64,000 nt of DNA, from positions 1,120 to 65,119 of the forward strand of contig NZ_LMUY01000043.1 of the NCBI RefSeq assembly GCF_009765685.1. The letters run 5' to 3'. This stretch comes from Acidisphaera sp. L21 (GTDB lineage Bacteria; Pseudomonadota; Alphaproteobacteria; Acetobacterales; Acetobacteraceae). The notes beneath the pieces were generated by a model. It saw only the letters and a program-made list of their open reading frames with translations, had not been told where the DNA came from and ran no database searches. The translations under genes were made by a program, and so were the position numbers. This document shows, in pieces, positions 2,400-37,708 of this stretch. The stretch's first letter is position 1; each line of letters starts with the position of its first letter.

Positions 2400-3068
2400 C
2401 TAAACACGTTGTAGAATGTTGCGCACAGCCGTTGCCGTCCATGCCCCAGCGCGAGGCGTGCGAATGCCCTTCTCCGTGAGTTCCGAAGCGATGGATCGCA
2501 GGCTTTGACCTGCAGAGCGCATCTCAGCGGCAATCGGTCCAACTTGCGCTGCAAAGGCATCTGCCCGCGCCATCACCGCTTGCGTGCCAAGATGGCCCTC
2601 GACCTTGGGACCACCTTTCCAGCCCCCCAGGACCACGCCACGTGCCCTTGCAGCTGCCAAGGCTGCCTTGGTGCGTGCCGAGATCGCCCGACGCTCCTCC
2701 TGCGCCACGACCGCCAGAATGCCGACGGTCAGATCGTTGGCACTCGGCATGTCGGCGGCAATGAACGGCACCGACCCCTTTTGGAGACCCAGCAGGAAGT
2801 GGGCATCGCGTGACAGACGATCTAGCTTGGCAATGACCAGGGTTGCCCCTGTAAGCCGGCATTGCTGAAGGGCTCGGGCGAGCTGGGGACGATCGTTGTT
2901 CTTGCCGCTCTCTACCTCTGTGAACTCGGCAGTGAGGCTCCACGAACCCCCGTTGAGATAGCTGCGCACTGCTTCGCGCTGAGCTTCCAGCCCTAGTCCA
3001 CTGGCCCCCTGCTTGGCGGTGCTCACGCGATAGTATGCAACCCAGCGACCCTCAGCCATTTGTATCAA
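2400..3068 (-). CDS. Serine recombinase (resolvase/invertase family)
   Basis: N-terminal YYRVSTAKQ catalytic-serine motif, LDRLSRD motif, C-terminal HTH (RSIASELTEKGIRTPRAGAWTATAVRNIL). 222 aa. Confidence 0.85.
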   Translation of the reverse strand: MIQMAEGRWVAYYRVSTAKQGASGLGLEAQREAVRSYLNGGSWSLTAEFTEVESGKNNDRPQLARALQQCRLTGATLVIAKLDRLSRDAHFLLGLQKGSVPFIAADMPSANDLTVGILAVVAQEERRAISARTKAALAAARARGVVLGGWKGGPKVEGHLGTQAVMARADAFAAQVGPIAAEMRSAGQSLRSIASELTEKGIRTPRAGAWTATAVRNILQRV

Positions 3069-3617: not shown

Positions 3618-6600
3618 ATGCCAAGTCGCCGCGTCCACGGTGACAAAGGTCGCCGTCTCGGGGAAAATGCCATGCCAACCAATGTGACTGCGCCTCCCAC
3701 CGGGTCGACTATGGAAGATGAGGTTACTTACGTTAGCGGCATCACGAACACGGGCACTGTTGCAGCGATTAGTGGCCTAACCTGGAACGGCGACGGCTCA
3801 GACTCGAGCACTCCAGACGCCGTGGCGACCTACAATCAAACCATGTCCACAGCATCTAAATGGGGTCCGAGTGAGACACCAGGCACAAGCGGCGGCACGC
3901 AGCTGTATTATTTCGATCCTGCGTCCGACTGGACACCAGCCGAGCAGTCGATCCTGGCAGGAGGACTTGCGCTCTGGTCAGCAGAGTCGAACATTCAGTT
4001 CGCCGTGACGACAAATCGCTCTGCGGCCACGCTTGACTTCATCCGCGGTAATACCGGGTCGGAGTTTGAAACCGGCGGCACTGCCCCGGGAGAGCTGATC
4101 GGCGCTACGACGTTGGGCGGCAGTCAGGGAGCAAACGTCAGCATTAACGTGACGACAAACTCGCCAGCGAGCGGCTTCGGACCAATAAGCTTTTCCTCCG
4201 ATACATACCCTATTGACGCTCTAATCCACGAAGAAGGCCATTTTCTCGGCTTCTATCATGGCGGCCCATATAATGGTGACGTCAATTCCGCGACACAACA
4301 ATACAGCCCATACGACAACCGGTTGTATAGCATTATGTCATACATCGATCCGGAAGATACGACAGCCAAGTATTACGGCAGCTATACGGTCACGGGCACT
4401 TCCTGGAACAACAATGACCCAACAACGCCTCAGATGCTCGACATCTTGGCGGCCCAACGCCTTTACGGCGCACCGACAACAACTCCACTTTCAGGGGGCC
4501 AGGTTTTCGGCTTCAATACTAATATCACGGGCCTGATTCAGCAATTCTTCGATTTCACGATCAACACTGCTCCAGTGATTACTCTGTTCGATACGGGCAC
4601 GAACAATACGCTCGACCTCTCTGGTTATGCCACCGCCGAGAAGGTGAACCTAAATGCGGGCACGTTCAGCAGCTTTGACGGCATGGTTAACAACCTGGGT
4701 ATCGCTTTCGCCACGGCGATCGACAACTTTGTCGGCGGCACGGGTGGCACCGAAGTCACCACAAATACCGATGCCGACACAATCACCGACACTGGCTTCG
4801 GCAACATCGTCGACTTCTCCGGGACCTTGGCAAGTTACCTGCTGGTGCTCGGTGGCGCGGCAAAGGTTCTTGTCACCAGTATCGCGTCGGGCATCACCGA
4901 TATCCTGAACGGTGTGCAGACGCTGGCGTTCAGCGACCAGTCGGTCCAGACCAGTGTCCTCACCGTGGCACCAACCGTCACCCTCGCCACCGCCCCGACC
5001 GCGACCAATGTGGTGAAAGCCACCCTGGGCACGGTGAGCGCCGCAAATGCGGCCACCGCTTCCGACCCGATCACCGTAACGCTGACGTCGGATGCCGACT
5101 TCAGCACGGGCAGCTCGATCGTGATTACCGGCGGCAAGCTGATCTACACGCCGGGCGTGGTCACGGCTGCCAAGGCCGGGTCGGACGTGATCAAATACGT
5201 CGTTACGGACACCACAACTGGAGCCTCCGTAAACGAGACGCAGACCGTCACCTTAGGCAACGGGCCAGCGCCCACTGTGATCCTCGCCACGTCACCGTCT
5301 GCAAGCAGCACCGCGACAGCCACTCTCGGCACGGCCATTCCAGGCGTTACGGGCGATGCCTTGGTGGTGACGCTGACCTCGGATGCGGACTTTGCTACGG
5401 GAAGCAAAGTGACGCTCTCCAATGGCAATCTGGTTTACACCCCAGGCACGATTACAGCGGCCAATGCCGGCTCGGACGCACTGAAGTATTCCGTGACCGA
5501 TAGCGTCACGGGCGCCGTCACCATGGAGACACAGAACGTCACGCTGGTGGCTGCTACAACGGGTCCAAATCCCCCGGTGACGATCGGCAGTGGGCCGCAG
5601 AGCTTCGTTCTGAACATGTCCGAAGATGCTTACATGGGGAACGCTCAGTTCACGGTCGCCGTGAATGGCACCCAGGTCGGCGGAACCCAAACTACGACGG
5701 CCTTGCACTCCATGGGTCAAGATCAGGCCTTCACGGTGGCCGGTAGCTTCGGCACGCAGCCCTACACCGTCACCGTCGATTTCCTGAATGACGCCTACGG
5801 TGGAACGGCTACCACTGACCGTAACCTTTATGTCGACACGACAACGGTCGGTGGTGTCACTCAAAACACGAATGCGGCGCTGCTGAGTTCTGGCTCGGTG
5901 TCCTTCTCGGTCGGGTCGGCCGGAACGTCTGCTCCCGTCACCATTGGCTCGGGGCCTGATACACTGGCGCTGCAGGTGTCTGGGGACGCCTACATGGGCG
6001 ATCCGCAGTTCACCGTCGCCGTGAACGGAAGCCAAATTGGCGGGGTCCAGACGGCAACAGCGTCCCATCTTGCTGGCGCGTCGCAGACCTTCAACGTCAT
6101 GGGCAACTTCGCAGGCCCAGGCTCGGCTACCATCACCTTCCTCAATGATGCCTACGGCGGAACGGCGGCAACTGACGTCAATCTCTACGAGACCGGCGCA
6201 ACCATCAACGGGAAGACGATCAGCGGTGCTCCCCTAACCGAGTTGAGCGATGGTTCCATGACCTTCCAGTTCCCAGGGTCGAACACGACGAACGCCGCCA
6301 CCAGCACCATCCTCGGGCTCTCCGAGGATGCCTACATGGGTGACGCGCAATACACGGTCTCGATCGACGGCAAGGCAGCTTCAATGCCGGCTTTCGTGAC
6401 GGCGCTTCACTCAGCGGGTGCTTCCCAGGCGCTCAGCCTGGGCACGCTGACGGCGGGCTCGCATGACATTGCGGTCTCGTTCCTCAACGACGCCTACGGC
6501 GGAACGGCGGCGACCGACAAGAACCTCTACGTCACCGGCATCGCCGTGAATGGCAGTGTTGTGCCGAACTCTACGGCTTCCCTCCTCGGTGACATGACCA

Positions 6601-6629
6601 CCCACTTCACAGTGAACGTGCCTCACTAG
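3618..6629 (+). CDS. Large metzincin zinc-metalloprotease (serralysin-like HExxHxxGxxH + SIMSY Met-turn) with Ig-like and triplicated C-terminal repeat domains
   Basis: ALIHEEGHFLGFYH = HExxHxxGxxH; SIMSY Met-turn ~25 aa downstream. Two ~95-aa Ig-like repeats (TVTLTSDADF[SA]TGS...) follow. Then three ~115-aa tandem repeats, each with [EG]DAYMG[ND][AP]Q[FY]TV...FLNDAYGGTA[AT]TD.NLY. More likely start is ATG 3672 (MPTNVT..., RBS GGGGAA 6 nt upstream). No N-terminal signal peptide and no GGxGxD RTX nonapeptides seen. Confidence 0.8.
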   Translation: MPSRRVHGDKGRRLGENAMPTNVTAPPTGSTMEDEVTYVSGITNTGTVAAISGLTWNGDGSDSSTPDAVATYNQTMSTASKWGPSETPGTSGGTQLYYFDPASDWTPAEQSILAGGLALWSAESNIQFAVTTNRSAATLDFIRGNTGSEFETGGTAPGELIGATTLGGSQGANVSINVTTNSPASGFGPISFSSDTYPIDALIHEEGHFLGFYHGGPYNGDVNSATQQYSPYDNRLYSIMSYIDPEDTTAKYYGSYTVTGTSWNNNDPTTPQMLDILAAQRLYGAPTTTPLSGGQVFGFNTNITGLIQQFFDFTINTAPVITLFDTGTNNTLDLSGYATAEKVNLNAGTFSSFDGMVNNLGIAFATAIDNFVGGTGGTEVTTNTDADTITDTGFGNIVDFSGTLASYLLVLGGAAKVLVTSIASGITDILNGVQTLAFSDQSVQTSVLTVAPTVTLATAPTATNVVKATLGTVSAANAATASDPITVTLTSDADFSTGSSIVITGGKLIYTPGVVTAAKAGSDVIKYVVTDTTTGASVNETQTVTLGNGPAPTVILATSPSASSTATATLGTAIPGVTGDALVVTLTSDADFATGSKVTLSNGNLVYTPGTITAANAGSDALKYSVTDSVTGAVTMETQNVTLVAATTGPNPPVTIGSGPQSFVLNMSEDAYMGNAQFTVAVNGTQVGGTQTTTALHSMGQDQAFTVAGSFGTQPYTVTVDFLNDAYGGTATTDRNLYVDTTTVGGVTQNTNAALLSSGSVSFSVGSAGTSAPVTIGSGPDTLALQVSGDAYMGDPQFTVAVNGSQIGGVQTATASHLAGASQTFNVMGNFAGPGSATITFLNDAYGGTAATDVNLYETGATINGKTISGAPLTELSDGSMTFQFPGSNTTNAATSTILGLSEDAYMGDAQYTVSIDGKAASMPAFVTALHSAGASQALSLGTLTAGSHDIAVSFLNDAYGGTAATDKNLYVTGIAVNGSVVPNSTASLLGDMTTHFTVNVPH

Positions 6630-6768: not shown

Positions 6769-8283
6769 CTACGCGGCGGCTCTAACCGTTTCCACGAAGT
6801 GGTTGACCACCTCGTTCAGCTTGTCCGATCGGCCTGACAAGCGCGAGACAGCCTGCTGCGCGTTGGACGCCGCATGGTCAGTCTGCGACGTGCTGTGGGC
6901 CAACCGCTCCAAATTCGAGGCAATGGCGTCGCTGCTACTAGCAGCCTGCTGCACGCCGGAGGCTATCTCCCGCGTGGCATGGCCCTGTTCCTGGATCGAT
7001 GCGGCAACATGGTCCGTGACAACACCTAAATTAGCCAGCGACCGGGCGATGGAGCCGATTGCATCGACCGCCGGGCCTGTGCGGGCCTGAATGGTCGCGA
7101 CGTGGCCCTGCACATCGATCGTGGCCCGCGCCGTTTGCGCCGCCAATGCCTTCACCTCTCCAGCGACCACCGCAAACCCACGGCCCGCCTCCCCTGCACG
7201 TGCAGCCTCAATGGACGCGTTCAGAGCCAGTAGATTGGTCTTTCTCGCAATGCCGTGGATCATGCTCACGACTTCGCCAATCCTGCTGGCGGCGTCGGCT
7301 AGGTCAGCAACGGCGGTGCGGGTTTGCTCTGCGGCGACGCTAGTATCACGTGCTGCGGTTGCCGCTGAAGCCATTTCCGCCGACAAGCCAGATACGCTGT
7401 CCGTAAGCCGCCCAGCCGCCTTAGCAACTGAGATGACGCTGATGGCGGTTTGCTGCGAGGCGGCCGCGATGGCTGCCGTCTGCTCAGACGTGTCGCTAGC
7501 AATACCGGACAGGTTGGACGCGGATGCCTGCATTTCCACGGTGGTGACGAGCATCTCGCCGACTACCTTGGTCACCGTATCCTGAAAGCGGCTGGCCAGG
7601 TTAGTCGCAACTTCTTGTCGCGTCAGCATTGCCAGACGTTTGGCTTCCAATGCGGCAGACGCGGCGCGCTGTTCGGCAAGATGAATTTGCGTCGACAAGC
7701 TGGTCTGACTTTCCAGTAACTGCCCGACCTTGTGGGTGGCCCACATCAGCGTTACGGCCTCCAGAACGAGGATGACAGCATGCAGTAGCACACGCATGAT
7801 ATTGGGACCGCCGGGGTAAACAAGGGCTGAGAGGAACTCGTTCAACGTCAGATGGTGCAACGCCACTGTCACACATGCCAGCCCAACGACTCGCCAATCG
7901 CAATAGGCGCTCAGTAGCGCAAGTCCGGCGAAGAAATACATGTGAATGTCGATTTGCCAGGGTTGCGCTGCCGCTTCACCGAGCAGCACTGCAATCGAAC
8001 CCATCAACGCCACAGCGACCGTCAATCGCGTTGCTAATCCCGTCCCGAATACTGCCCAGGTAAGCGATGCCCAAACTGCCAGCCCCGCGCTCGACAAGCC
8101 AACCGATATCGGCTCGATCCCCTGGAACAGAGCGACCGCGATGCAAAGCGGCACCTGGGCCCATAACAGCGCCTGCAGGCCGCGATTGGCGAGACGGCGG
8201 ATGGTTTGAAGCTCAATGTCGCTAGCGTGAGAAGATAGCTTCGGGCTAAGCGACACCACACCACTCTCCCACAATGGCTTCAC
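6769..8283 (-). CDS. Methyl-accepting chemotaxis protein with multi-TM N-terminal sensor region
   Basis: Conserved MCP signalling hairpin [36 protein letters not shown]-terminal ~190 aa holds 5-6 hydrophobic helices. Confidence 0.85.
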
Positions 8284-9239: not shown

Positions 9240-9599
9240 ATGCCTAGTATTCCACATATCACATGCGCCCTGATCCTCGCTCAACCTTGGGCAGGACTTG
9301 TTGTCTCTGGTGTCAAACGGTGGGAGCTGCGTTCAACCGCCTGCCACAAGAGAGAACGGGTAGGCATCATCGCTAAAGGATCAGGCACTGTTATCGGCAG
9401 CGTGGTGATCACCGGTAGCTTCGGCCCTATGACGACGGACCAACTGGATACCACCGAGGACATGCACCGAGTGAGCTGTGAGCTACGACAGCTCAAGCCA
9501 CGGTGGCGACACGCCTGGCACTTCGCAGACCCTGTGCGCTTCGACGTGCCTCAGCCCTACCGGCATCCTAACGGGGCACAGAGCTGGATAAAGCTGTGA
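9240..9599 (+). CDS. ASCH (ASC-1 homology, PUA-like) domain protein
   Basis: CALILAQPWAGLVVSGVKRWELRS...RVGIIAKGSG matches the ASCH consensus (A-S-I-QPWA-LI-SG-K-E-R-W). 119 aa. Sits in the low-GC part of the island, preceded by an AT-rich regulatory region. Confidence 0.55.
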   Translation: MPSIPHITCALILAQPWAGLVVSGVKRWELRSTACHKRERVGIIAKGSGTVIGSVVITGSFGPMTTDQLDTTEDMHRVSCELRQLKPRWRHAWHFADPVRFDVPQPYRHPNGAQSWIKL

Positions 9600-10193: not shown

Positions 10194-10862
10194 GTGGTTT
10201 CAGCTCCTGTTAGCACAGGTATGTCGGTAGTTCTAAATGGACAGTTCGCGCCTTGGACTTTCCGTCCTGACTTTCTTGCACGCGAGGGGTTTCTCACGCC
10301 TGAAGAAGCTGATGGCGCAATCAATCCAATTCTAAGTGCCGAATTCGTTCAATTTAAATTGTCGTGGGTGATGTTGACGGCAGAACTTCAACGACTCTCT
10401 ATTGCAACAATAGAAGAGCCTTATATTCGCATTCATGACCTTGTCTTGTCATATTTGACGCTGATGCCGCTTACCCCAGTATTGCATGTGGGCATCAATC
10501 GCAATGCTCATTTCCTGTGTAGTGGCACAAGGGAGTGGCATGAAATCGGTGATCGCCTCGCGCCAAAGGGCCCATGGGGAGAATTTGCTGAGGGGGAGGG
10601 CGTGACAAAGTCCGGATTGCGTAGCATGACGTTTGAAAGACCTCGCGATCCCAAAAGCGAGCTTCCCGGGCGCACGAGGGTGACGATTGAGCCATCGATG
10701 GTGCACAATCCGGGAATTTACATCGACGTGAATGATCATTACGACATCGTCGATGGTGGGCTACCCGGGAGCAGCGCCCGAGCTATGGAGCTTATTCAGA
10801 GACGGTGGGAGGTGAGCGAGGCAACACTGTCTCAAATTGCTCACAAAGTATTGGGGGCATAA
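10194..10862 (+). CDS. Hypothetical protein, first gene of a 3-gene low-GC cassette
   Basis: GTG start with RBS GGGAAGG 6 nt upstream. 222 aa, no recognisable motif. Stop TAA is immediately followed by the ATG of the next gene (translational coupling). Confidence 0.55.
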   Translation: MVSAPVSTGMSVVLNGQFAPWTFRPDFLAREGFLTPEEADGAINPILSAEFVQFKLSWVMLTAELQRLSIATIEEPYIRIHDLVLSYLTLMPLTPVLHVGINRNAHFLCSGTREWHEIGDRLAPKGPWGEFAEGEGVTKSGLRSMTFERPRDPKSELPGRTRVTIEPSMVHNPGIYIDVNDHYDIVDGGLPGSSARAMELIQRRWEVSEATLSQIAHKVLGA

Positions 10863-11441
10863 ATGAGCGCTTCAGTTGCCTACCAAACGCCGATCGCCCC
10901 GCAAGAACCACGCAACCCAACTCTGCATAAAGGGGTAACGGACTATGTGGACTCGAGACGTAAGCCTCCGCAAAGAGTTGCAGAGGTCCTACGAGCTGCA
11001 CGAGCACGGGTAAACAAGCCGGCATTTGGAACGCGTGAGGCCGAAGATAGCCCCGGTAAGGCTGACGTAACGCTAGCAAGCTCTGAGAGCGCAAATCTCC
11101 CTGCGCAATCGATTAGAGAGGACGTGATCCAGAGATGGGAAGGGAGAGTAACGTCTCTTGGATTGCATACATTTACGGCATCTTTAGTTGATGTTACAGC
11201 TGGGCATAAGATCGAGACTGAAGAGATTGAGTTACCATATGAAGAGATTCAGTTAGGAGATGTAAAAAGTCTTCGGATTGGTTCGATATTTGTTTGGCTT
11301 ATCGGGCATAGATACAATTCTGGATCCAGAGAGAAATTTGTCAGACTCATTGTTCGAAGGCTGCCGGCTTGGACACGAAGTGATTTAGAAAATGCTCGAG
11401 AAAAAGCCGCTAATTACTCCAAACTCATTGAATGGGAGTAA
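10863..11441 (+). CDS. Hypothetical protein, second gene of the cassette
   Basis: ATG abuts the upstream stop. 192 aa, no recognisable family. Its 3' end overlaps the start of the MBL gene. Confidence 0.5.
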   Translation: MSASVAYQTPIAPQEPRNPTLHKGVTDYVDSRRKPPQRVAEVLRAARARVNKPAFGTREAEDSPGKADVTLASSESANLPAQSIREDVIQRWEGRVTSLGLHTFTASLVDVTAGHKIETEEIELPYEEIQLGDVKSLRIGSIFVWLIGHRYNSGSREKFVRLIVRRLPAWTRSDLENAREKAANYSKLIEWE

Positions 11442-12564
11442 CCAAGATAGTCCACCTCATCCAGACCAAATCGAGGTAACTCTGATCGGCCCAGGCTACG
11501 GCGAGTGCGTTTGCATCCATATTGGTGCCGGAGAATGGATCGTCGTTGATAGTTGCATCAACTCAGGAAGCACAGAGCCCGCATCTGTCACCTACCTAAA
11601 CAGTATCGGCGTTGATCCCGGCCAGGCCGTAAAGCTTCTTGTTGCAACTCATTGGCATGACGATCATTGTCGTGGGCTGTCAAAATCACTCGAAGCATTT
11701 GGCTCTGCACAATTCGTGATGGCGAGTGTCCTGTCGCGTGACGAGTTTTCAACATTCGCGTCGGGATATGACGAGCGCCCCACCGCGAAAGTTGGGTCAA
11801 AGGTAACTGAAATCAACCAAGTATTTACTGCACTGACACAAGGACCTACACCTCGTCGAAAGGTTCGGCGAGCAAGCCAAGGTCGTGTGCTCCTTTCGAC
11901 AATAACCGGATCTACGACCTCGCGCGTCCAGTGTTGTGTGACGGCGCTGTCGCCTTCCGATCTCGCAGAGAGTGACTTCCTAGCGCGGCTAGCTGAAGAA
12001 ATGCCCAGTATTCGCAGAACAAAAAAAGCTGCGCCGGATATTTCTCCAAACGACGCGTCAGTAGCACTCTGGGTTGAAGTTGGAGATCGAGCAATTCTCC
12101 TCGGGGCAGATCTCGAAGAGTCCGGGCATCCTGAGCGAGGTTGGAGCGCCATTTTAGATGCGAACAATTTGCCCGTTGGAAAGGCTGATTTGTTCAAAGT
12201 GTCTCACCATGGTTCGTCGAACGGGCACCACCCAGAATTATGGAAAAAGAAGCTTAAGCCAGGCTCGCTCGCTGCGTTAACGCCATGGTCGCGTAATAAG
12301 GGGTTGCCCACGTCAGCCGACATTCGACGGCTTGATGGATTTACAAAGGGTGGGTTTGCAACAGCAAAAACGTTTCCGAACAGCGCGAGTTCAAAACCCG
12401 CAATCGTCCGATCCTATCTACGCCAACAGCGCTTAAGGCTCAGATCTTTAAATGAAGGCTTTGGAATGGTGAGGTTTCGCACGTCACCCCATCGGAGAGA
12501 TGGGGCATGGTGCATCGAGCTCTTCGACGGGGCTTGTAACATCATCAATTTACTAACTGCCTAG
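11392..12564 (+). CDS. MBL-fold metallo-hydrolase, ComEC/Rec2-C-terminal-like (COG2333-type) putative nuclease
   Basis: ATHWHDDHCRGL (HxHxDH zinc motif) and KVSHHGSSNGH (the HHGS motif typical of the ComEC beta-lactamase-like domain). 390 aa from ATG 11392; alternative TTG 11428. Overlaps the upstream gene. Confidence 0.75.
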   Translation: MLEKKPLITPNSLNGSNQDSPPHPDQIEVTLIGPGYGECVCIHIGAGEWIVVDSCINSGSTEPASVTYLNSIGVDPGQAVKLLVATHWHDDHCRGLSKSLEAFGSAQFVMASVLSRDEFSTFASGYDERPTAKVGSKVTEINQVFTALTQGPTPRRKVRRASQGRVLLSTITGSTTSRVQCCVTALSPSDLAESDFLARLAEEMPSIRRTKKAAPDISPNDASVALWVEVGDRAILLGADLEESGHPERGWSAILDANNLPVGKADLFKVSHHGSSNGHHPELWKKKLKPGSLAALTPWSRNKGLPTSADIRRLDGFTKGGFATAKTFPNSASSKPAIVRSYLRQQRLRLRSLNEGFGMVRFRTSPHRRDGAWCIELFDGACNIINLLTA

Positions 12565-12675: not shown

Positions 12676-13101
12676 TCACCCTACGCTTGCTGGAGCGCGC
12701 TTAATCAGCCTGCGCAAGAACATCGGCACGTGATCTTCGCCGTATTCCTCACGCAAGCCTTCAATCCATGAGAGCTCCTGCGCCGACAGCACAGTGTTTC
12801 TCATCATGCCTTCAATCACCGCGAGGATCTTGGGTGAGTAGACCGAGCACCAAAGGCGCACGAGGCGAGGGGCATCAGCACCCAGCGCAGTTGCCAACGG
12901 CACAATCTTATCCTCGGGAACGCGCGTGACGCCACGCTTGAACATCGTAATCAGGTTCTGGTTGCCGTAGCCGATCTCGAATGCAATCTCGGTCTGCGTC
13001 TTGGGGCAGGCGTTAATTAGTCTCTTGATCTCTTCCACGAACGGATTGCTAACCGTCCCTGGTTCCTTCAACGGCGGCTGAGTTCGGGAAACACGAGCCA
13101 T
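12676..13101 (-). CDS. XRE/Cro-CI-type helix-turn-helix transcriptional regulator (repressor-like)
   Basis: HTH KTQTEIAFEIGYGNQNLITMFKRG. Start set at internal Met (MARVSRT...) with RBS AAGGGA. Divergently transcribed from the 13302 (+) small gene and Rep-like gene. Confidence 0.55.
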   Translation of the reverse strand: MARVSRTQPPLKEPGTVSNPFVEEIKRLINACPKTQTEIAFEIGYGNQNLITMFKRGVTRVPEDKIVPLATALGADAPRLVRLWCSVYSPKILAVIEGMMRNTVLSAQELSWIEGLREEYGEDHVPMFLRRLIKRAPASVG

Positions 13102-13301
13102 AATTATCCCTTGCAAAGCATCACGTCCACCCCTAAAGCGAGCGCTTACTGAGCGTAGCTGATCGTGTGCGATCGAGTCAACAGCACTCGTATCTTCCCT
13201 CTCCCACACGCCCTTCAAAGAGCGGAACCTCGAAAAAGACTTGAAACTAAGCGAGCGCTTACGTTATGAGATGGCAGAATGAGCCTTGAAGGAGATGAAG
13301 A

Positions 13302-13619
13302 ATGCTGAAGCCACGATACAGGTCATCTAAACTGGAAGCGATGATCCCGCGCGGAATGCACGTGCAGATTTCGACACTAGCCGATGCGCTCGGCTGCGAC
13401 GTCGACTCGCTGGTAATCGAGGGCATTGGAGATCTTCTAGTGCGTCTGGATCCAACGGGGGTTCATCGCATTCGGCACGCCAAACTAGAGGCGGGGATGG
13501 AAGCCATCGCAAGCATTACTAGGACACTTCAGACGCCCCACCGGCGCCGCACAACGAAGAGCAATACGCTGGTTGAAGAGAAAGATGATGAACAATCCAT
13601 CCCGTTCTACATCACATAG
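13302..13619 (+). CDS. Small hypothetical protein (possible RHH/CopG-like regulator) upstream of Rep-like gene
   Basis: 105-aa ORF divergent from the XRE gene. MIPRGMHVQISTLADALGCDVDSLVIEGIGDLLVRL resembles a small DNA-binding fold; weak. Confidence 0.3.
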   Translation: MLKPRYRSSKLEAMIPRGMHVQISTLADALGCDVDSLVIEGIGDLLVRLDPTGVHRIRHAKLEAGMEAIASITRTLQTPHRRRTTKSNTLVEEKDDEQSIPFYIT

Positions 13620-15315
13620 ATATGCCGATATTCTGATATTCCGATCTTGGAATATGCCGACATACATGTCTTGGCATATCACCCGACAGCTGACGATGCC
13701 ATTCCTCAGAAGTCGGCGTTTCGAAAGTAATTTCCTGGTCGACGATGCTTGGTCCAGCAGAGGGTCTAACGCATTGACGACGCTGGACCCCGCGCAAAAG
13801 CGAGGATCAGGGTTATCCAGCGGGGAAGACCGAGCCTGTAAAGAAGAAGACTTCTACTCTCCTGTGAGAAGAGAAGAGAAGAGAAGAGAAGAGAAGAGAA
13901 GAGAAGAGAAGAGCTGGAACGAGATCGCTGACAACATCCTCCTCTCAACCCACAACCATGAGCTTCCAATGACAGCTGTCCCGTTACCCACATCACGATC
14001 CACATCAACACCAAGCACAACGCCTTCTCCCACTACCCGCAGGGTGAACGCAGCTGGGCACGCATATCACGGCAGGAAGATACAGACTGCCACCAGGGGA
14101 CGTTACCCGTGGACGCCGAAAGCGCTGACGCCAGATGCAAGCCAATGTGCGACGATCGAACAGGTCAGTGGCGCATATGAGGCAATGCAGTTCGCTGCCA
14201 GCACAGGTCGCCGCCTCAACACGTGGTTCACCGTCATCTTCCCTCAACTGCATGGGAGTTCTGGTTGGCACGCAGGCGAGCCAGCAGGTCCACAGGTTCG
14301 GAAGCAGCGTGAGAGACTGCGGACTTGCCTAGCAGGTTGGTGCAATCGGCACGGCATCCCCCAGGCCTGGATCTCTGCTGTTGAGAACGTAGCAGGTCGC
14401 GGCCCGCATATCCACGTCTTGATGCACTTGCCGGAAGCTGCTCCACCCAAAACCCTGCCGACCGATGGCGAGATCATCCTTCTTGATCCATTGTGGCACC
14501 AACACCGCCAAAAGCTCTACGATTTGCTTCGCAAGTTTAGCGGCTGGAGTCAGAGAGAGTTGGATGCTGCCCCAGAAGGTCTGCGTCCGATCGACTTGTC
14601 GGAAGTCCACCTACCCACGGACCACCCCAAGGACAACACGTTCAGAAAGTTCTGCTACCTGGTGAAGTCACTCAGCCCCGACGAGGTTCTTACCTACCAG
14701 GGGCAGCGAATGACATTGGGCGAGATTATTTCCCATGACGGTTGTGGTGAAGATACCACCGTTCGGCCCTCGACGAACACTTACACGCACCGAATGGTCA
14801 GCTCTTCAAGAAGCATTGCCGCTGGTGCCAGGGAAAATGCCGGTTGGAAGGATGGCAAATTCGATCTCACGATACTGTCGCGGCGCATCCGTCAGGAGCG
14901 GTTGCGCGAGACTGCCTCTCGCCTGCTGCGCAATGAGCTGCCAACCAGAAAGCTCGCAGAGACAACCAGCAAGTCAGAACCGGATCCAATCCGCGATGCA
15001 GCGCTGACAAAACTCTTCGAGGCGATTGCAGCCAGCGCCGGAGACGCCGAAAACCGTGACGCAGCCGCACACGTGGATGAGCTCTTCGAAGAATATGATT
15101 TCAGCGACGATGAGCTCAGTGACTACGTTGCGCGGCATACGATGGCGACGGATTTGTCCTGCGACGATACCCTTGCAGAAACAAGCCCCAGGAAGGGCGC
15201 AGATGGCATCCTAGCGTCCACAGCTGGGGTAGGGGCATCTACGCGTCACATGCCGCTCAGCGACTCTCCTGCGCGTCGTATTGGGGCAGTATGGTGCCCG
15301 ATGGAGGGCTTATGA
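13573..15315 (+). CDS. HUH-endonuclease / rolling-circle Rep-like (replication-relaxation) protein with acidic C-terminal tail; true start possibly ATG 13969
   Basis: Motif 1-like NTWFTVIFP, HUH motif GPHIHVLMHLP, and Y-x-x-x-K motif KLYDLLRK ~35 aa later, in the order and spacing of RCR Rep/relaxase proteins. The N-terminal 130 aa of the listed ORF includes the (GAGAA)9 tract and REEKR repeats. Met at 13969 (MTAVPLP...) may be the real start. Confidence 0.5.
   Translation: MKRKMMNNPSRSTSHRYADILIFRSWNMPTYMSWHITRQLTMPFLRSRRFESNFLVDDAWSSRGSNALTTLDPAQKRGSGLSSGEDRACKEEDFYSPVRREEKRREEKRREEKSWNEIADNILLSTHNHELPMTAVPLPTSRSTSTPSTTPSPTTRRVNAAGHAYHGRKIQTATRGRYPWTPKALTPDASQCATIEQVSGAYEAMQFAASTGRRLNTWFTVIFPQLHGSSGWHAGEPAGPQVRKQRERLRTCLAGWCNRHGIPQAWISAVENVAGRGPHIHVLMHLPEAAPPKTLPTDGEIILLDPLWHQHRQKLYDLLRKFSGWSQRELDAAPEGLRPIDLSEVHLPTDHPKDNTFRKFCYLVKSLSPDEVLTYQGQRMTLGEIISHDGCGEDTTVRPSTNTYTHRMVSSSRSIAAGARENAGWKDGKFDLTILSRRIRQERLRETASRLLRNELPTRKLAETTSKSEPDPIRDAALTKLFEAIAASAGDAENRDAAAHVDELFEEYDFSDDELSDYVARHTMATDLSCDDTLAETSPRKGADGILASTAGVGASTRHMPLSDSPARRIGAVWCPMEGL
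13866..13913. repeat. Perfect pentanucleotide microsatellite (GAGAA)x9 (+GAG)
   Basis: Read directly: gagaa repeated nine times from 13866 to 13910, then gag. Lies inside the 5' part of the listed Rep-like ORF, or 56 nt upstream of the alternative start. Confidence 0.95.
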
Positions 15316-15499
15316 GGCCAGCCGCAACGCCACCCAGGACGCACGAGCAAAAATACCGATCTGACGCCCTCCTGGCCAGCCTGGCAATTGCTGCATCGGT
15401 TCGGCCTGAACTGAAGCAGGCCGTCAGCTTACCAAGGAACCAAGCTCCTCGCTCAGCATATGCGCCAAACGGCATATGCCAATGTTCGCATGAACGCAT

Positions 15500-16180
15500 A
15501 TGTCGACATGCTTATACAGGAATATGAAGATGGATATTCAAACCGCACGCTCAGCCTTTGCCGTTCTTAGCCTTTCAGGACGCCTAGAGGTTATCCAGAC
15601 CCTCGCTAAGCACGAACCTCATGGTCTCACTGTTGGACAGATTGCTACAATCGTCGACAGAAGTCAGCCGCATACGTCGAAGTATCTAACCACCTTGTTC
15701 ACCGCCGGATTGGTCACAAGGGGACCCCGTAGCCGCACCACGATCTATCACGCTAATTCAGGCAAGCTTTCAGAACTGAAATCGCTTTTAGGTCCACAGG
15801 CTGAGATTGTGCTTTTTCCCGATATCGTTGCTAAAGCCGCGCCCGGAAATATCGCTCCACCAAATAAACCTTCAGCCGAGAATGACGGGCGGTCTTCCAT
15901 TGCGGCAGAGATAAGAGAAATCGAACGTCAAGATGACAAGAGCCGTTGGCTTTCTGATGAGGAGTTAGATGAACTAGACGAATTTCAAACGGCCAACAGA
16001 ATGAAGGCTGTGGCCTTGGAGGCAACGATCAGCAAAGGCGTAACGGAGGAAAAGAAACGCATACTGGAGATGGAGATTAGTGTTCTCATGGAAGATCCCA
16101 GGATGAAAGTTTATATAAGCGATCAACTGATCGAACGAAACAGTTCAAGAGAATTAGATCTGCTTCTCGCAGATCTGTAG
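15500..16180 (+). CDS. ArsR/SmtB-family HTH regulator with long acidic C-terminal extension
   Basis: ARSAFAVLSLSGRLEVIQTLAKHEPHGLTVGQIATIVDRSQPHTSKYLTTLFTAGLVTR is a typical ArsR wHTH. The C-terminal ~120 aa is acidic/coiled (DEELDELDEF...). Confidence 0.6.
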   Translation: MSTCLYRNMKMDIQTARSAFAVLSLSGRLEVIQTLAKHEPHGLTVGQIATIVDRSQPHTSKYLTTLFTAGLVTRGPRSRTTIYHANSGKLSELKSLLGPQAEIVLFPDIVAKAAPGNIAPPNKPSAENDGRSSIAAEIREIERQDDKSRWLSDEELDELDEFQTANRMKAVALEATISKGVTEEKKRILEMEISVLMEDPRMKVYISDQLIERNSSRELDLLLADL

Positions 16181-16300
16181 AGGAGTCCAGTATATTATAT
16201 TGCGATGATCTTGGAGAAAACCCGCATCGACATCATCCAGCTGCTGGAAGGAGCCAGATGGGCTCGCCGCAGGGGAGCTGCCCCGATGCTTGCGGCCGTT

Positions 16301-16324
16301 ACCGCCACCGCCACCGCCACCGCC
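16301..16324. repeat. Hexanucleotide repeat (ACCGCC)x4
   Basis: accgccaccgccaccgccaccgcc read directly. Intergenic, 3' of the minus-strand lipoprotein gene. Confidence 0.85.
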
Positions 16325-16376
16325 AATGGGAACGACCTTTTTGCCTGCCCTGACGCCGGTCGACGCCTTCTCCCAA

Positions 16377-16955
16377 CTAGGAGTTTACCTGATGGATGCG
16401 GGCTTTTACCTCTGGGCTGTGTTCAAGAGCATCGATGAACGCAGCAATGTTGTTCTGAGCCGCCCGGTTGATGGACTCGCGGGCACGGATTACGCCAAGG
16501 AACGCGAAGTCTCCTGGAGTCTTGCCCTCAGCCGAGATTATTTGAGAGAAAAGGATCTCTCCGCTAGCCCGGTTGATGATCGTGTAACGAGCATCTGTCT
16601 GCGTCGGGAACGTTATGCCGGCAGACGGCGCATCAAACTTCAGGATCTTTACCTCAAGGCTGACGTGACTGTGGCTGTCATCATTGAAGATAGCCGCGCG
16701 AGCTAGCGCCTCCTGGGTCGCTTCCTTCCACGGGGCGGTAAGCTCCGCGACGGCTGGGGGCAGTGGGCCTGTGCGCTCATTGGGAGCTCCCGTCGTAACC
16801 GTCACGCCTCTCAGGTCCTCATCAAGGACACTGGCGCTGGGTTGGACGTTCAGCACCGAGAAGTTCATCGGCTGCGGCGGGTTACAGGCAGCAAGCGGAC
16901 CAACACACGCGAAGATTAGAGCTAGTCGCAGTATGCAGGTTGATCGAGCGGTCAT
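16377..16955 (-). CDS. Putative lipoprotein
   Basis: MTARSTCILRLALIFACVGPLAAC: signal peptide with lipobox LAAC. Start chosen at this internal Met of the listed ORF (16377-17018). Confidence 0.5.
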   Translation of the reverse strand: MTARSTCILRLALIFACVGPLAACNPPQPMNFSVLNVQPSASVLDEDLRGVTVTTGAPNERTGPLPPAVAELTAPWKEATQEALARAAIFNDDSHSHVSLEVKILKFDAPSAGITFPTQTDARYTIINRASGEILFSQIISAEGKTPGDFAFLGVIRARESINRAAQNNIAAFIDALEHSPEVKARIHQVNS

Positions 16956-25594: not shown

Positions 25595-28500
25595 TTGACT
25601 CTGTTCGACCTCGCAACGTTCGATGGCCCCGCAACCGTTTGGGTGGAGGCGATGGCAAATCGTATATGGCGGGGCGGAAATGGCGACTGGTATGACGCCA
25701 GCAACTGGCTGACCAGTTCCGGCCCGGCGAACTATCCCCTCCCCGGCGATACCGTCACGATCGCCAGCGGCGACATCGATCTGATTGGTAGCGAGGCCAA
25801 GGATAACGGGACATTCGACGCCGATGCGGTGACGCTCGGCACCTCTGGTGGTCTGGAGACGACGCTCACCGCGATCGATGCGATCCTGAACCACAATTTC
25901 ACCGTCACCGCCGCTGGGTCTGCCACCATTCTGGCGGTTGGGCAGTCCATCATCGAGGGTAGCATCACGGCTGGTGTTGCAGGCGCCACCTTCACGCTCG
26001 CGAGCGTGGCCAATGGCAGCGAGCCGGGCAATCTGGTGTTCACCCGCGGCTCCAGCCTGACCATCAGCGGCACCGAGACACTCGACCTCGAGGGCAACAT
26101 CACGGTTGAGGCCGGGTCCGGCTTCATAACCCCGTCCACAGTCAACGTGGTGAACAACGGGACCGTCAGCCAGATCGGCGCCGCCGATACGATCGATGGC
26201 AGCCTGGCGGGAACCGGCACGTGGGAGCTCACATTCTCGACCAGCCTCCTGCTGGCGGGGAGCGTCTCGGCCGGCCAGGATTTCACCTTCGGGTTGGATG
26301 GGCGGCTTCGGCTTGCCGACCCGACGGCATTCGATGGCTCCATCGGCGGCTTCACGCCGGGCAACCTGATCGACTTCACGACCATCAGTGCCAGCAACGT
26401 CAGCTACGATGCCGCGACGGGCACATTGACGCTGAACAATGGCACTGGCAGCCCAGCGCTGGCCACGATCGACCACGTGACGGCCGCCGCGGGCACGATG
26501 GTCGCGACATCCGACGGCAATGGCGGCACGTTGGTCAGCTACACCGACACGTCCACCCGGCAGCGCTACGAGAACGCCGGTGCGGACGACGCGATGCGAT
26601 CCAACGTCGTCCGGGATACGATGACGGTGCCGGGCACGACGACGCCGATCACGGGCGCCGGGGTGAAGATCGGCATCATTTCCGACAGTTTCGACGAGGC
26701 GAGCCCTGGCAGCGCCAATACCGACGCCGCCAACGGCTATTTACCCGAGTCGGGCGGCAAATCGGCGGTTACCGTCCTGACCGAAGGCGGGACTGGATCG
26801 TCGGACGAAGGCCGCGCGATGGCCGAGCTGATCTACCAGGCGGCACCCGGCGCGCAGCTGTATTTTTCCGCCGCCGGCGACAGCGAGGCGGCGATGGCGA
26901 GTTCCATCAACGGCCTCGTCGCGGCGGGCTGCAACATCATCGTCGACGACATCAGCTTTCTCGACACACCCATGTACCAGGTCGACGGGACGCTGGACAC
27001 CGCGGTCAGCAACGCCATCGGCGACGGCGTAGATTACTTCACCTCGGCCGGCAATTTTGGCGACTCGTTCCTCGACCAGAGTTTCGCCCCGGCAACGACG
27101 ACCCTGCACGATGGCACGGTGGCGAACGAGCATGTGTTCAGCAACGGCACGGCCTACGAGTCCATCACCGTGCCTGCCTCGACGTCGACCCAGATCGATC
27201 TGCAATGGACGGCCGCCTATGAAGGGCTGGGCGACACCGGCGCGCCGGATGCGCTGACGTTCAAGGTCTTCGATGCCTCGGGTACATTGGTGGCGACGTC
27301 CACGCAGGCGAGCGAAGGGGCGCTGACAACCGACATCTCCGCGTCCTTGCCAACATCCGGCGCGGCGACACCATACCAACTTGCCGTCTATCTGAATGGC
27401 GGGCAGGTCCAGCCGAGCGGCTTCAAGCTGGTGCTATCGGCCACCGGCAACGGATCCGGACCCGGCGGCGTGATCGACGACCCACAGGCCGCAAGCGGCT
27501 CGGGCGATATACGGGGGCAGGAACTCATCCCGGGCGTCAACACGGTCGGGGCCACGTATTACGGGGACAGCGCCGCCTTCGGGCAGACGCCGGACGCGAC
27601 GGAGTATTACTCCGACAGTGGCACCGGCACGTTGCTGTATGCCAGCGATGGTACACCCCTCGCCACGCCGGAGAGCGCGGGCAAGGTCGATTTCGTGGCG
27701 CCTGACGGGGTGAACACCACCGTTCCCGAACTCGCCTCGTTCTTCGGGACCTCCGCCGCAGCGCCAGATGCGGCGGCGGTGGCCGCGCTGATGCTGCAGG
27801 CCGAGCCGTCGCTGACCACCGCGCAAGTCTCGGACGATTTGGCCGGGTCGGCGATAAGCCTGGGTTTGTCCCCCGCGGCGCAGGGGGCGGGCCTGATCCA
27901 GGCGGATCGTGCCGTGGCCCTGGCGGAGGGGATTGCTTGCTACGTAGCCGGTACCCAGATCTTGACGGTTCGCGGCGAGGTTGCGGTGGAGGCATTGGCG
28001 CCGGGTGACATGGCGGTCACCGCCAACGGTGCACACCGCCCGATCATCTGGATGGGTCATCGGCGACTCGACTGCCGCAACCATCCGCGCCCGGCGACAG
28101 TCTGGCCGGTGCGGGTGGAGGCCGGCGCATTCGGCCGTGGCCTGCCGCACCATGATTTATGGCTGAGCCCCGGCCATGCCGTGTTGATCGAGGGGGCTCT
28201 GCTGCCGGTGGAGCGGTTGATCAACGGCGCCACCGTCACATCCGTGCCGGTCGATAGCGTAACGTATTGGCACGTGGAGTTGGATCGGCACGACGTGATC
28301 TTCGCCAACGGCGCCGCGGCGGAGAGCTACCTCGATACCGGCAACCGGTCCGCGTTCGGAAACGGCGGCGACGCGTTGGCACTGCATCCGGATTTTTCGT
28401 CCACGGCGGACATGGCGCTGCGCAAGACCTTCCCCGTGTCGAAGCAGGCGACGACGGCGGCGCGGGCCAAGATCCTGGGGGTTGCAGGCCTGCTCGGATA

Positions 28501-28927
28501 CGCGCTGACAGCAGATGTCGCGCTGCACATCCTAGTCGACGGCGTTGCCCTCGCGCCGAGCCGGGTCGAGGGCAATGCCTTCGTGTTCGAGCTACCGCCG
28601 GCTTATGGCGAGGCTTGGCTGGCGTCTTCGCACTTCGTTCCGGCGCAGATGCGGCCGAATATGACCGACTTGCGCCGATTGGGTGTGCGGCTGTCCGGCC
28701 TTTGGGTGGACGGAACCAGAGTGCCGCTCGCGAACTTGCCGGACGAGGGTTGGCATAAGCTGGAGGTCGCTCGCGGCAAGGTTGCGGGTGAGGCGCGCTG
28801 GACCAACGGGCGCGGCCGGCTGCCGGAAGGCGGGCGGCTGGTCCGGATCGAACTGATCCAGGAATTGCGGGCCTGGGTCCGGGCTGACAGGAGCCCGGCT
28901 CGTGCGACGAGTCAGTCAGCCGCCTAG
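25595..28927 (+). CDS. Large exported multi-domain protein: N-terminal beta-helix-like repeats, subtilisin (S8) peptidase domain, Hint (Hedgehog/intein) domain
   Basis: S8 motifs VKIGIISDSFD (Asp), HGT-region, GTSAAAPDAAAVAALM (Ser). Hint domain CYVAGTQILTVRGE...HAVLIEGALLPVERL...HDVIFANGAAAESY. TTG start at 25595. 1110 aa. No classical signal peptide. Confidence 0.85.
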   Translation: MTLFDLATFDGPATVWVEAMANRIWRGGNGDWYDASNWLTSSGPANYPLPGDTVTIASGDIDLIGSEAKDNGTFDADAVTLGTSGGLETTLTAIDAILNHNFTVTAAGSATILAVGQSIIEGSITAGVAGATFTLASVANGSEPGNLVFTRGSSLTISGTETLDLEGNITVEAGSGFITPSTVNVVNNGTVSQIGAADTIDGSLAGTGTWELTFSTSLLLAGSVSAGQDFTFGLDGRLRLADPTAFDGSIGGFTPGNLIDFTTISASNVSYDAATGTLTLNNGTGSPALATIDHVTAAAGTMVATSDGNGGTLVSYTDTSTRQRYENAGADDAMRSNVVRDTMTVPGTTTPITGAGVKIGIISDSFDEASPGSANTDAANGYLPESGGKSAVTVLTEGGTGSSDEGRAMAELIYQAAPGAQLYFSAAGDSEAAMASSINGLVAAGCNIIVDDISFLDTPMYQVDGTLDTAVSNAIGDGVDYFTSAGNFGDSFLDQSFAPATTTLHDGTVANEHVFSNGTAYESITVPASTSTQIDLQWTAAYEGLGDTGAPDALTFKVFDASGTLVATSTQASEGALTTDISASLPTSGAATPYQLAVYLNGGQVQPSGFKLVLSATGNGSGPGGVIDDPQAASGSGDIRGQELIPGVNTVGATYYGDSAAFGQTPDATEYYSDSGTGTLLYASDGTPLATPESAGKVDFVAPDGVNTTVPELASFFGTSAAAPDAAAVAALMLQAEPSLTTAQVSDDLAGSAISLGLSPAAQGAGLIQADRAVALAEGIACYVAGTQILTVRGEVAVEALAPGDMAVTANGAHRPIIWMGHRRLDCRNHPRPATVWPVRVEAGAFGRGLPHHDLWLSPGHAVLIEGALLPVERLINGATVTSVPVDSVTYWHVELDRHDVIFANGAAAESYLDTGNRSAFGNGGDALALHPDFSSTADMALRKTFPVSKQATTAARAKILGVAGLLGYALTADVALHILVDGVALAPSRVEGNAFVFELPPAYGEAWLASSHFVPAQMRPNMTDLRRLGVRLSGLWVDGTRVPLANLPDEGWHKLEVARGKVAGEARWTNGRGRLPEGGRLVRIELIQELRAWVRADRSPARATSQSAA

Positions 28928-30446: not shown

Positions 30447-30543
30447 GGTTACGAGACCTAAGTCTTGCGAAGACCTATGCCTTGCGAAGACCTATGCCTT
30501 GCGAAGACCTATGTCTTGCGAAGCCCTATGTCTTGCGGAGACC
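30447..30543. repeat. Tandem repeat, 17-bp unit cttgcgaagacctatgc x ~5.5
   Basis: Units at 30464-30480 and 30481-30497 are identical. 30498-30514 has 1 mismatch and 30515-30531 has 2. Partial units flank both ends. Confidence 0.9.
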
Positions 30544-37635: not shown

Positions 37636-37708
37636 GGCGTATGAAACCCAGGGCGTATGAAGTTCAGGGCGTATGAAACCCAGGGCCGACGAAATCTAGG
37701 CGGCGACG
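37629..37708. repeat. Tandem repeat, 16-bp unit gggcgtatgaaaccca x ~5
   Basis: gcttatgaaacgta / gggcgtatgaaaccca / gggcgtatgaagttca / gggcgtatgaaaccca / gggccgacgaaatcta. Lies between the convergent MCP and antiporter genes. Contains the MCP stop TAG. Confidence 0.9.

Follow-up and report, generated by a model that had tools for sequence, protein, structure and literature searches.

A perfect GAGAA repeat tract before a Rep-class HUH endonuclease gene on an integrative element of Acidisphaera sp. L21: a plausible phase switch

Could a simple sequence repeat lying in front of a replication gene of a mobile element change the expression of that gene at random? The question is raised by a 64,000-nt stretch of DNA from Acidisphaera sp. 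L21 (Acetobacteraceae according to the host record), which was analysed at its full length and is called the window here. A sequence-only reading had proposed that an HUH Rep-like gene within the open reading frame 13573-15315 carries at its 5′ end nine perfect GAGAA units, and that slippage of this tract might act as a phase switch. The frame was present as listed and encodes 580 amino acids. The repeat was also found exactly as described, with nine complete units at 13866-13910 and a partial gag up to 13913: TRF returned a period-5 array at 13866-13913 of the + strand with the consensus GAGAA, 9.6 copies and 100% perfection, and direct reading and repeat scans gave the same result. This (GAGAA)x9 + GAG microsatellite of 48 nt is at the same time a perfect homopurine mirror repeat; the next purine run measures 16 nt, a third of its length.

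No other perfect repeat in the 64-kb window reaches 15 nt with more than four copies. The 15-mer of the GAGAA repeat occurred eight times against 0.03 expected by chance, and all eight occurrences fell inside the tract. Scanning the window revealed no other simple or contingency-type repeat, so that this part of the Acidisphaera sp. L21 genome bears no sign of contingency-locus use. The sequence-only reading had stressed the rarity of such a tract in a high-GC bacterium; this held in so far as the window contains no counterpart, but the tract is situated in an island of 50-60% GC and not in the host backbone of 65-70% GC. As regards the type of repeat, a unit of 5 nt, which is not a multiple of three, in 9.6 perfect copies is what is seen at contingency loci. 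By what is known of repeat slippage, a perfect tract of nine 5-nt units should expand and contract frequently, because loops of 5 nt mostly evade mismatch repair. The GAGAA tract thus probably changes length easily, and its length could vary the amount of replication protein that is made.

The tract is a real and curious feature, and it is a known kind of thing, namely a 5′ pentanucleotide repeat as in Neisseria opa. In the opa genes, a 5′-proximal (CTCTT)n repeat decides by its copy number whether the downstream frame is read (PMC13183285). The microsatellite is the same one, because reverse-complementing CTCTT gives AAGAG, which is GAGAA cyclically permuted, and a genome scan with (GAGAA)x7 recovered an Opa gene of Neisseria lactamica. 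The settings differ, however. The opa repeat is found where the conserved signal peptide of a surface adhesin is encoded, at many paralogous loci in a pathogen restricted to its host, and its variation is documented, whereas the present tract belongs to a replication gene of a mobile element in a free-living acidophile, lies upstream of the conserved start and is not common to relatives.

That the protein is an HUH endonuclease of the Rep class with a single tyrosine, belonging to an unnamed family, is well supported by conservation across the family, a confident structural model, fold matches and gene context, in agreement with the sequence-only reading. Numbered from ATG 13969, the conserved core spans about residues 40 to 330, while residues 330 to 448 form a copy-specific acidic tail. 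Motif I (LNTWFTVIF, 14215-14241, + strand) is a β-strand of the model (55-60), and L215, N216, T217 and F223, counted in the 580-aa frame, do not vary among the closest relatives. The motif II block ENVAGRGPHIHVLMHLP (14383-14433, + strand) is modelled as a β-hairpin and contains the metal-binding HUH signature of the Rep class, two histidines with a hydrophobic residue between them, as H147-I-H149 in GPHIHVLMHLP; E139, G143, G145, H147, H149, H153 and P155 are conserved in at least 90% of 41 sequences. The strings NTWFTVIFP, HIHVLMH and YDLLRK and the acidic tail had all been noticed before and are all contained in the frame 13573-15315. However, the assignment of motif III to YDLLRK (14518-14535, + strand) was mistaken, because its tyrosine varies even among the five closest relatives. 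The conserved YxxK is Y-L-V-K within FCYLVKS (14656-14667, + strand). Its tyrosine, Y230 from ATG 13969 or Y362 of the 580-aa frame, is nearly invariant (at least 90% of 41 sequences), and both Y362 and K365 of the 580-aa numbering are invariant in a six-sequence alignment. This tyrosine lies C-terminal to HUH on helix 194-201 of the model, an arrangement typical of the Rep class, and conservation points to Y230 as the likely catalytic residue. Enzymes of the Rep class nick ssDNA at specific sites with the help of metal ions, through a covalent 5′-phosphotyrosine intermediate.

The predicted nuclease fold resembles solved HUH structures, which answers a check that had been called for; the near systems include the nuclease domains of parvovirus NS1, AAV Rep, SIRV1 ORF119 and RepB of pMV158. 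The protein of the window gave no match in Pfam, NCBIfam, PHROGs or PADLOC, none to PDB sequences by phmmer and profile search, and none to PF23343 (REP_ORF2-G2P) at E≤1. The last is the only Pfam family touched by the relatives: 24 of the 41 family members matched it, always over the segment of motifs I and II, with scores of 12 to 20 bits that all fall below the gathering threshold of 27.8 bits. The relation to PF23343 is therefore one of superfamily and not of membership. A filamentous-phage prophage, suggested by this G2P-like match, was rejected because the island carries no phage structural or assembly genes and has no support from PHROGs. The Rep family comprises 42 representative clusters at 50% identity, is covered by no Pfam or NCBIfam model, and was recovered only by exhaustive HMMER search, a word-indexed protein search having returned the window protein alone.

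The Rep gene is part of a conserved integrative-element backbone with a tyrosine integrase, a serine resolvase, an ASCH protein and HTH regulators. The integrase (16-1722, + strand) has a DUF6538 N-terminal domain and is 54% identical to the integrase beside the Rep gene of a relative (P0003). The serine resolvase (2400-3068, − strand) and a divergent HTH regulator (12676-13218, − strand) are respectively 45% identical to the resolvase and 44% identical to the gene at the same position in another relative locus (L125). Immediately upstream of rep lies a 105-aa frame (13302-13619, + strand; hypothetical in the NCBI annotation) with coding-like codon usage and no relatives, and downstream an ArsR/SmtB-type winged-helix regulator (15500-16180, + strand); in the closest relative an HTH_5 gene also adjoins rep. 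No conjugation genes were seen in the island, and no known RNA family, plasmid antisense RNAs included, matched in 13000-16300. Rolling-circle replication of an integrated element after its excision is known from the pSAM2-type elements of actinomycetes and from ICEBs1. Here too one chromosomal element carries both an integrase and an initiator of HUH or Rep type, and a similar lifestyle may be inferred; the protein families are different, and the island has no visible conjugation genes.

On either side of rep lies a cluster of nested repeats, inverted and direct, with ATATGCC/GGCATAT as the building unit. One lies between the 105-aa frame and TTG 13774 (13619-13680) and is a candidate operator or origin; the other (15457-15511), between the Rep stop codon and the ArsR-like gene, includes the palindrome GGCATATGCC at 15471-15480. 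Five of the six ATATGCC matches of the window fall inside these clusters. Their hairpins are predicted to be only marginally better than those of shuffled sequences (z −1.7 and −1.1), and no motif common with the relatives was found upstream of rep. In rolling-circle replicons, the double-strand origin with its bind and nick loci has repeats or a hairpin beside rep on which the Rep protein acts.

Whether the tract can act on the protein or only on its expression depends on where translation starts. Initiation at 13573, one of the starts considered by the sequence-only reading, was judged unlikely: the frame would overlap the coding-like 105-aa frame by 47 nt and would read through the inverted-repeat cluster. 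NCBI annotates a 513-aa protein starting at TTG 13774, which places the tract inside the coding sequence and in frame. A GAGGG at 13760-13764, 9 nt 5′ of this TTG, makes a plausible Shine-Dalgarno and start pair. The starts of the relatives and codon usage nevertheless point downstream of the tract. The five closest relatives start 10 to 60 residues after the position of ATG 13969, have no N-terminal extension and possess non-coding regions of 170 to 380 nt upstream of rep. The 48 non-repeat codons of 13774-13968 scored −0.20 per codon in the Rep frame, compared with +0.14 (sd 0.09) for genuine in-frame segments of genes of the island, and the protein search found no relatives of this extension. 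On these grounds ATG 13969, or a codon close by, is favoured as the conserved start, giving a protein of 448 aa (13969-15315, + strand). The tract would then probably lie in the leader, outside the ancestral coding sequence; from its end to the ATG we counted 55 nt. Since this start is favoured, a simple frameshift that turns the entire protein ON or OFF is less probable than a modulation through the upstream frame.

What repeat length would do to that upstream frame is given by the geometry of the locus, because a 5-nt unit is not a multiple of three and the number of units sets the frame relation with Rep. The copy-specific upstream frame contains the tract and corresponds, at 13774-13968 (+ strand), to the N-terminal 65 residues of the NCBI protein. 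With 9 or 12 units it fuses with Rep into the 513-aa long form; this is the assembled state, in which an upstream open frame of 160 codons, whose annotated start is TTG 13774, is joined to Rep and the residues bridging the junction read ...SWNEIADNILLSTHNHELPMTAVPLPTSR. With 7 or 10 units it ends at TGA 13970-13972, overlapping the Rep ATG in an ATGA stop-start junction (13969-13972, + strand). With 8 or 11 units it ends at another TGA (13929-13931, + strand), 37 nt before ATG 13969. The ATGA arrangement permits termination-reinitiation; we estimate that such an overlap would arise by chance in about 10% of cases.

The three length classes thus have defined frame relations, while slippage, translation of the upstream frame and an effect on the Rep level are inferred. 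Our best overall explanation, in which we place somewhat less than even confidence, is that an integrative-element HUH Rep is subject to a tract whose length alters its isoform or amount, and the phase-switch idea is in this form plausible. Rep would nick a site on the excised element and start rolling-circle replication or transfer. The copy-specific (GAGAA)9.6 tract, within a region of about 350 nt before rep, would gain and lose units by slippage; the upstream frame would be translated from TTG 13774, and the tract length would select fusion, ATGA overlap or the earlier stop. Repeat length would in this way produce stochastic changes in Rep isoform and amount, and hence in the replication activity of the excised element. 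A bolder version, which we consider improbable, is that the mobile element has made the initiator of its own replication subject to a hypermutable repeat, a bet-hedging of the element and not of the host. A random minority of cells with a different amount or isoform of Rep would then let the excised element replicate, amplify or transfer, the three states being fusion, ATGA coupling and uncoupled reading.

These proposals have to be weighed against an incidental microsatellite, which we regard as a serious possibility although not the leading one: Rep would be made from ATG 13969, the tract would be a recent neutral expansion in a non-coding leader with no meaningful effect of its length, and a stop-free, T-poor and purine-rich stretch would have given rise to the long frame and the annotated TTG as by-products. 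Several observations that count against a repeat switch fit this explanation. None of the eight readable loci of relatives has the tract, which is therefore no feature of the family and may be of recent, neutral origin; the extension has the codon usage of non-coding DNA and no relatives; the closest relatives start after the position of ATG 13969; and the window holds no other simple repeat. The sequence contains only 18% T, and among 119 comparable tracts elsewhere 55 do not adjoin any long open frame. The switch is further weakened by the lack of a Shine-Dalgarno sequence at ATG 13969 and of a σ70-like promoter in a scan of the + strand, and by the chance expectation of the ATGA overlap. 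On the other hand, an upstream open frame of at least 132 codons appeared in just 0.5% of composition-matched shuffles, and the tract is perfect and in frame. With a plausible Shine-Dalgarno sequence and TTG upstream, some ribosomes probably cross the tract, and a change in length would then alter their behaviour at the Rep start. We consider it improbable that the tract modulates the promoter or an origin with no part played by the reading frame, from a position that has the ATATGCC operator-like cluster on one side and the Rep promoter or start on the other. In that case every 5-bp step would rotate the helix through roughly half a turn; alternatively, the 48-bp mirror repeat could adopt H-DNA under supercoiling. 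The perfect mirror symmetry of the homopurine run, the inverted-repeat cluster 186 nt upstream of the tract and a CTGACA hexamer read directly just 3′ of it (13927-13932) are consistent with such a role, but no acceptable −10 element follows CTGACA and the relatives have no polypurine tract upstream of rep. Repeats in 5′-UTRs or promoters are known switches: an (ATCTTTC)n repeat in the leader of the Haemophilus influenzae hmw1A transcript adjusts the level of expression without a frame shift (PMC12721329). As a simple repeat before the start codon it offers a model for a Rep starting at ATG 13969. The hmw1A heptamer, however, forms a long RNA hairpin cut by RNase III, whereas the leader here is not more structured than shuffles (z +1.0), and a structured leader of the hmw type was dismissed.

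A pure opa-type ON/OFF switch appears still less probable. The functional protein would be the long form (from TTG 13774 or ATG 13585/13588), the tract would encode (REEKR)3, and lengths other than nine plus a multiple of three units would abolish Rep. The annotated TTG with GAGGG 9 nt before it, the in-frame tract and the long open frame of the assembly argue for this, as do the non-conserved N-terminal extensions of 60 to 180 residues in several distant relatives. The closest relatives, however, have no extension, its codon usage here is non-coding-like, a start at 13573-13588 meets the overlap and the inverted-repeat cluster already mentioned, and the whole conserved domain lies downstream of ATG 13969, which would probably make the OFF states leaky. 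A separate alternative bears on the role of the protein alone and leaves the repeat question unaffected. Instead of an initiator, the protein might be an HUH transposase or a Rep-like relaxase mobilising the element through the conjugation machinery of another element, which we judge unlikely. The transposases of IS91, ISCR and Helitron elements have two catalytic tyrosines (Y2) and occur in multiple copies per genome. The present protein has one conserved tyrosine, is encoded once in the window beside conserved neighbour genes and not in an insertion-sequence-like unit, and matches Helraiser at the level of the fold only. The motif order, with the tyrosine after HUH, is that of Rep proteins and not of classical relaxases (PMC5714925).

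A second copy of the element with another repeat number was sought widely. None was found in plasmid, phage, viral and metagenome collections, nor among 15 billion proteins. The individual searches covered plasmid DNA, genome contigs by protein pattern, metagenome contigs, both with the protein and with a flank-gap-flank DNA pattern that left the repeat number variable, viral contigs, and plasmids and phages by tblastn; each returned no other copy of the locus. No member of the Rep family was found on any catalogued plasmid or phage, and the short contigs of the relatives showed no terminal overlaps suggestive of circular plasmids.

The HUH Rep family travels with DUF6538-type tyrosine integrases and resolvases, and is useful for recognising integrative elements of a class that is poorly described. 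To our knowledge, phase variation driven by repeats comes almost exclusively from pathogens adapted to a host, in their surface genes and restriction-modification genes. If true, control by a repeat over an integrative element's replication initiator would carry phase variation over to the activity of mobile elements, and would bring repeat-driven variation to free-living bacteria of soil or acid environments, here an environmental alphaproteobacterium.

A perfect array of nine GAGAA units followed by GAG (period 5) occupies positions 13866-13913, as determined by TRF (score 96) and by direct reading of the sequence. A 15-nt probe of the repeat gave eight matches in the window against 0.03 expected from shuffles, and all eight were inside the tract, which confirms the array claimed by the sequence-only reading. 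The tract forms a 48-nt homopurine run of perfect mirror symmetry; the next-longest purine or pyrimidine run in the 64 kb measures 16 nt. Besides this tract, no perfect simple repeat with more than four copies was found in the 64 kb, and neither homopolymers of at least 8 bases nor tetranucleotide arrays were present. The GAGAA microsatellite is both genuine and striking. At 16301-16325, a perfect (ACCGCC)x4 array of hexanucleotides encodes a proline run in the ORF 16290-16706, and changes in its length would keep the frame. The high-GC part of the window carries a 17-bp tandem repeat at 30454-30543 (AGACCTATGTCTTGCGA, 5.3 copies, 91% matches) and, at 37620-37686, 4.2 copies of a 16-bp tandem repeat.

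The candidate replication (Rep) gene lies within the ORF 13573-15315 (580 aa), which is present and carries every string quoted previously. A single entry in the protein database is identical to it: a 513-aa 'hypothetical protein' from Acidisphaera sp. L21 (Acetobacteraceae), whose length implies a TTG start at 13774. The protein has no match in Pfam, NCBIfam, PHROGs or PADLOC, and no sequence match in PDB. When 1.84 billion representatives were searched exhaustively with HMMER, 42 relatives were recovered; 24 had E<1e-10, and the top three share 52%, 42% and 36% identity. Residues E139, G143, G145, H147, H149, H153, P155 and Y230 (counted from ATG 13969) are at least 90% conserved in a 41-sequence alignment, and conservation falls into three blocks: LNTWFTVIF (14215-14241), ENVAGRGPHIHVLMHLP (14383-14433) and Y-L-V-K within FCYLVKS (14656-14667). 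The motif I-II-III order defines Rep-class HUH endonucleases (PMC5714925), and the same order is found here, with a single tyrosine. The earlier choice of YDLLRK (14518-14535) as motif III was wrong: the five closest relatives have L, F, Y, F and C at the position of its tyrosine, and the third block is the one that contains Y230. Once motif III is corrected, the conserved blocks, the motif order and the 42 relatives bear out the proposed HUH Rep assignment. PF23343 (REP_ORF2-G2P) matched 24 of the 41 family members weakly, always over the motif I-II segment and always below threshold (12-20 bits for a cut-off of 27.8 bits). The protein is inside the HUH superfamily and outside PF23343, and we consider it with high confidence to be a genuine Rep-class enzyme of an unnamed family.

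Translation had been proposed to begin either upstream of the tract or at ATG 13969. The five closest relatives start 10 to 60 residues downstream of the point that corresponds to ATG 13969, and the frames ahead of their starts run into a stop after 7-88 codons. Non-coding DNA of 170-380 nt lies before their rep genes, similar in length to the 350 nt which separate a 105-aa ORF from ATG 13969 in the window. No relatives were found for the extension 13774-13968, which contains the tract. A log-odds model of codon usage, built from the genes of the island itself, gave the 48 non-repeat codons of this extension -0.20 per codon in the Rep frame, while real in-frame 48-codon chunks scored +0.14 (sd 0.09), with 92% of them not below 0. 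Scores typical of coding sequence were also obtained for the 105-aa ORF (+0.17), the Rep core (+0.09) and the Rep tail (+0.16). These data favor ATG 13969 and suggest that the tract lies upstream of the ancestral start, most probably in a leader and not in ancestral coding sequence. Translation through the tract nonetheless finds support in the frame upstream of ATG 13969, which is open for 160 codons, in a GAGGG located 9 nt before TTG 13774, and in the choice of this TTG by the NCBI pipeline. Among composition-matched shuffles, 0.5% kept 132 or more codons open, and 12% kept 65 or more, enough to reach back to TTG 13774. ATG 13969 is not preceded by a Shine-Dalgarno sequence. No promoter was predicted on the plus strand, the leader is unstructured, and Rfam families gave no match.

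The Rep gene belongs to a block of 50-60% GC (around 1-25 kb) set in a backbone of 62-72% GC. The step is sharp, with positions 1-25500 at 50-61% and 25500-64000 at 62-72%. At its left end this block carries the gene of a DUF6538 tyrosine integrase (16-1722), followed by that of a serine resolvase (2400-3068, minus strand); it probably represents a single integrative island, with its left attachment site beyond the window. Several genes neighboring Rep recur in the contigs of relatives. The integrase (DUF6538 + Phage_integrase) shares 54% identity with the integrase next to the Rep gene of P0003, and an ASCH protein (9240-9599) is 59% identical to one beside that of P0002. The resolvase and a divergent HTH regulator (12676-13218) share 45% and 44% identity, respectively, with genes in the contig of P0014, and the ArsR-type HTH gene adjoining Rep (15500-16180) likewise adjoins Rep in the P0002 locus. 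None of the Rep relatives occurred among 72,556 plasmids and 50,697 phage records, which indicates that the family belongs to integrative elements. Judged from sequence, the likeliest role is the initiation of rolling-circle replication of the excised element, the rival roles being Rep-like mobilisation or transposition. In the contig of one relative (L002, 3243-6165), DUF6538 and Phage_integrase are called as separate genes flanking a DDE_Tnp_1 transposase gene, the integrase being apparently split by this insertion.

Five of the six ATATGCC/GGCATAT matches in the window form two short clusters bracketing Rep, one upstream (13619-13680) and one downstream (15457-15511). Within them are nested inverted repeats and a palindrome, GGCATATGCC, located just upstream of the ArsR-like gene. 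These clusters are candidate operator or origin sites, with marginal fold statistics. Long tandem repeats upstream of rep in two relatives (183 bp x1.8 at L005 101-436; 19 bp x2.1 at L002 860-898) may be iteron-like origin elements and do not resemble the GAGAA tract. Elsewhere in the low-GC island, three tightly packed or overlapping genes (10194-12564) may constitute cargo for anti-phage defence: neither of the first two ORFs has a family match, and the last gene encodes an MBL-fold protein (11392-12564) matching PADLOC LmuA (1.9e-12), RTasMBL, NCBIfam Avs1a (1.5e-6) and phrog_28593 (1.9e-31). A 1003-aa protein (3618-6629) combines three CBM60 xylan-binding modules with a serralysin-type C-terminal domain, its gene adjoining a methyl-accepting chemotaxis gene (6769-8283, minus strand). 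At the GC boundary, a 1110-aa protein (25595-28927) carries subtilase (Peptidase_S8) and Hint_2 domains.

When 185,579 species genomes were scanned for (GAGAA)x7, at least 119 tracts were found, those listed being spread over many phyla and including alphaproteobacterial MAGs. It follows that such tracts, although rare, exist outside the L21 genome as well. The tract had been called very unusual for a high-GC alphaproteobacterium; the gene sits in the 50-60% GC block. Of the 119 tracts listed, 47 are situated at the 5′ border of a long open frame. The proteins scanned downstream of 53 such loci, selected by a slightly broader criterion, were for the most part secreted or exposed at the surface, with the Opa positive control among them, and no replication or mobile-element family appeared among the 25 listed of 37 families. 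In a single Hyphomicrobiales MAG (CBDCEV01; loci L007, L042 and L060), several contigs each bear a long (GAGAA)n tract, with lengths of 15-21 units, which suggests that some lineages accumulate this repeat. A CTCTT coding repeat switches the Neisseria opa genes, and the reverse complement of the GAGAA tract is a cyclic permutation of this unit (PMC13183285). We rank the tract as a further case of a known kind, an opa-type 5′ pentanucleotide repeat, here on an unusual target gene.

A neutral origin of the tract is almost as probable as a regulatory one. It agrees with the most probable position of the tract, in a leader outside ancestral coding sequence, and with its being copy-specific: none of the eight readable relatives' loci has a microsatellite near rep. 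No second copy of the element was found in the plasmid, phage, viral, metagenome and genome contigs searched. Perfect tetra- and pentanucleotide arrays are known to slip, and mismatch repair corrects 5-nt loops poorly, so the length of the tract should be unstable. An effect of slipped-strand length changes on Rep is mechanistically plausible. When the locus was rebuilt in silico with 7 to 12 units, the upstream frame was fused to Rep with 9 or 12 units, and stopped at TGA 13929-13931 with 8 or 11. With 7 or 10 units it stopped at TGA 13970-13972, which shares an ATGA with ATG 13969, a junction typical of translational coupling. Depending on its length, the tract thus puts upstream translation and the Rep start into one of three distinct relations, whose significance depends on the use of TTG 13774; this three-state geometry is specific and testable.
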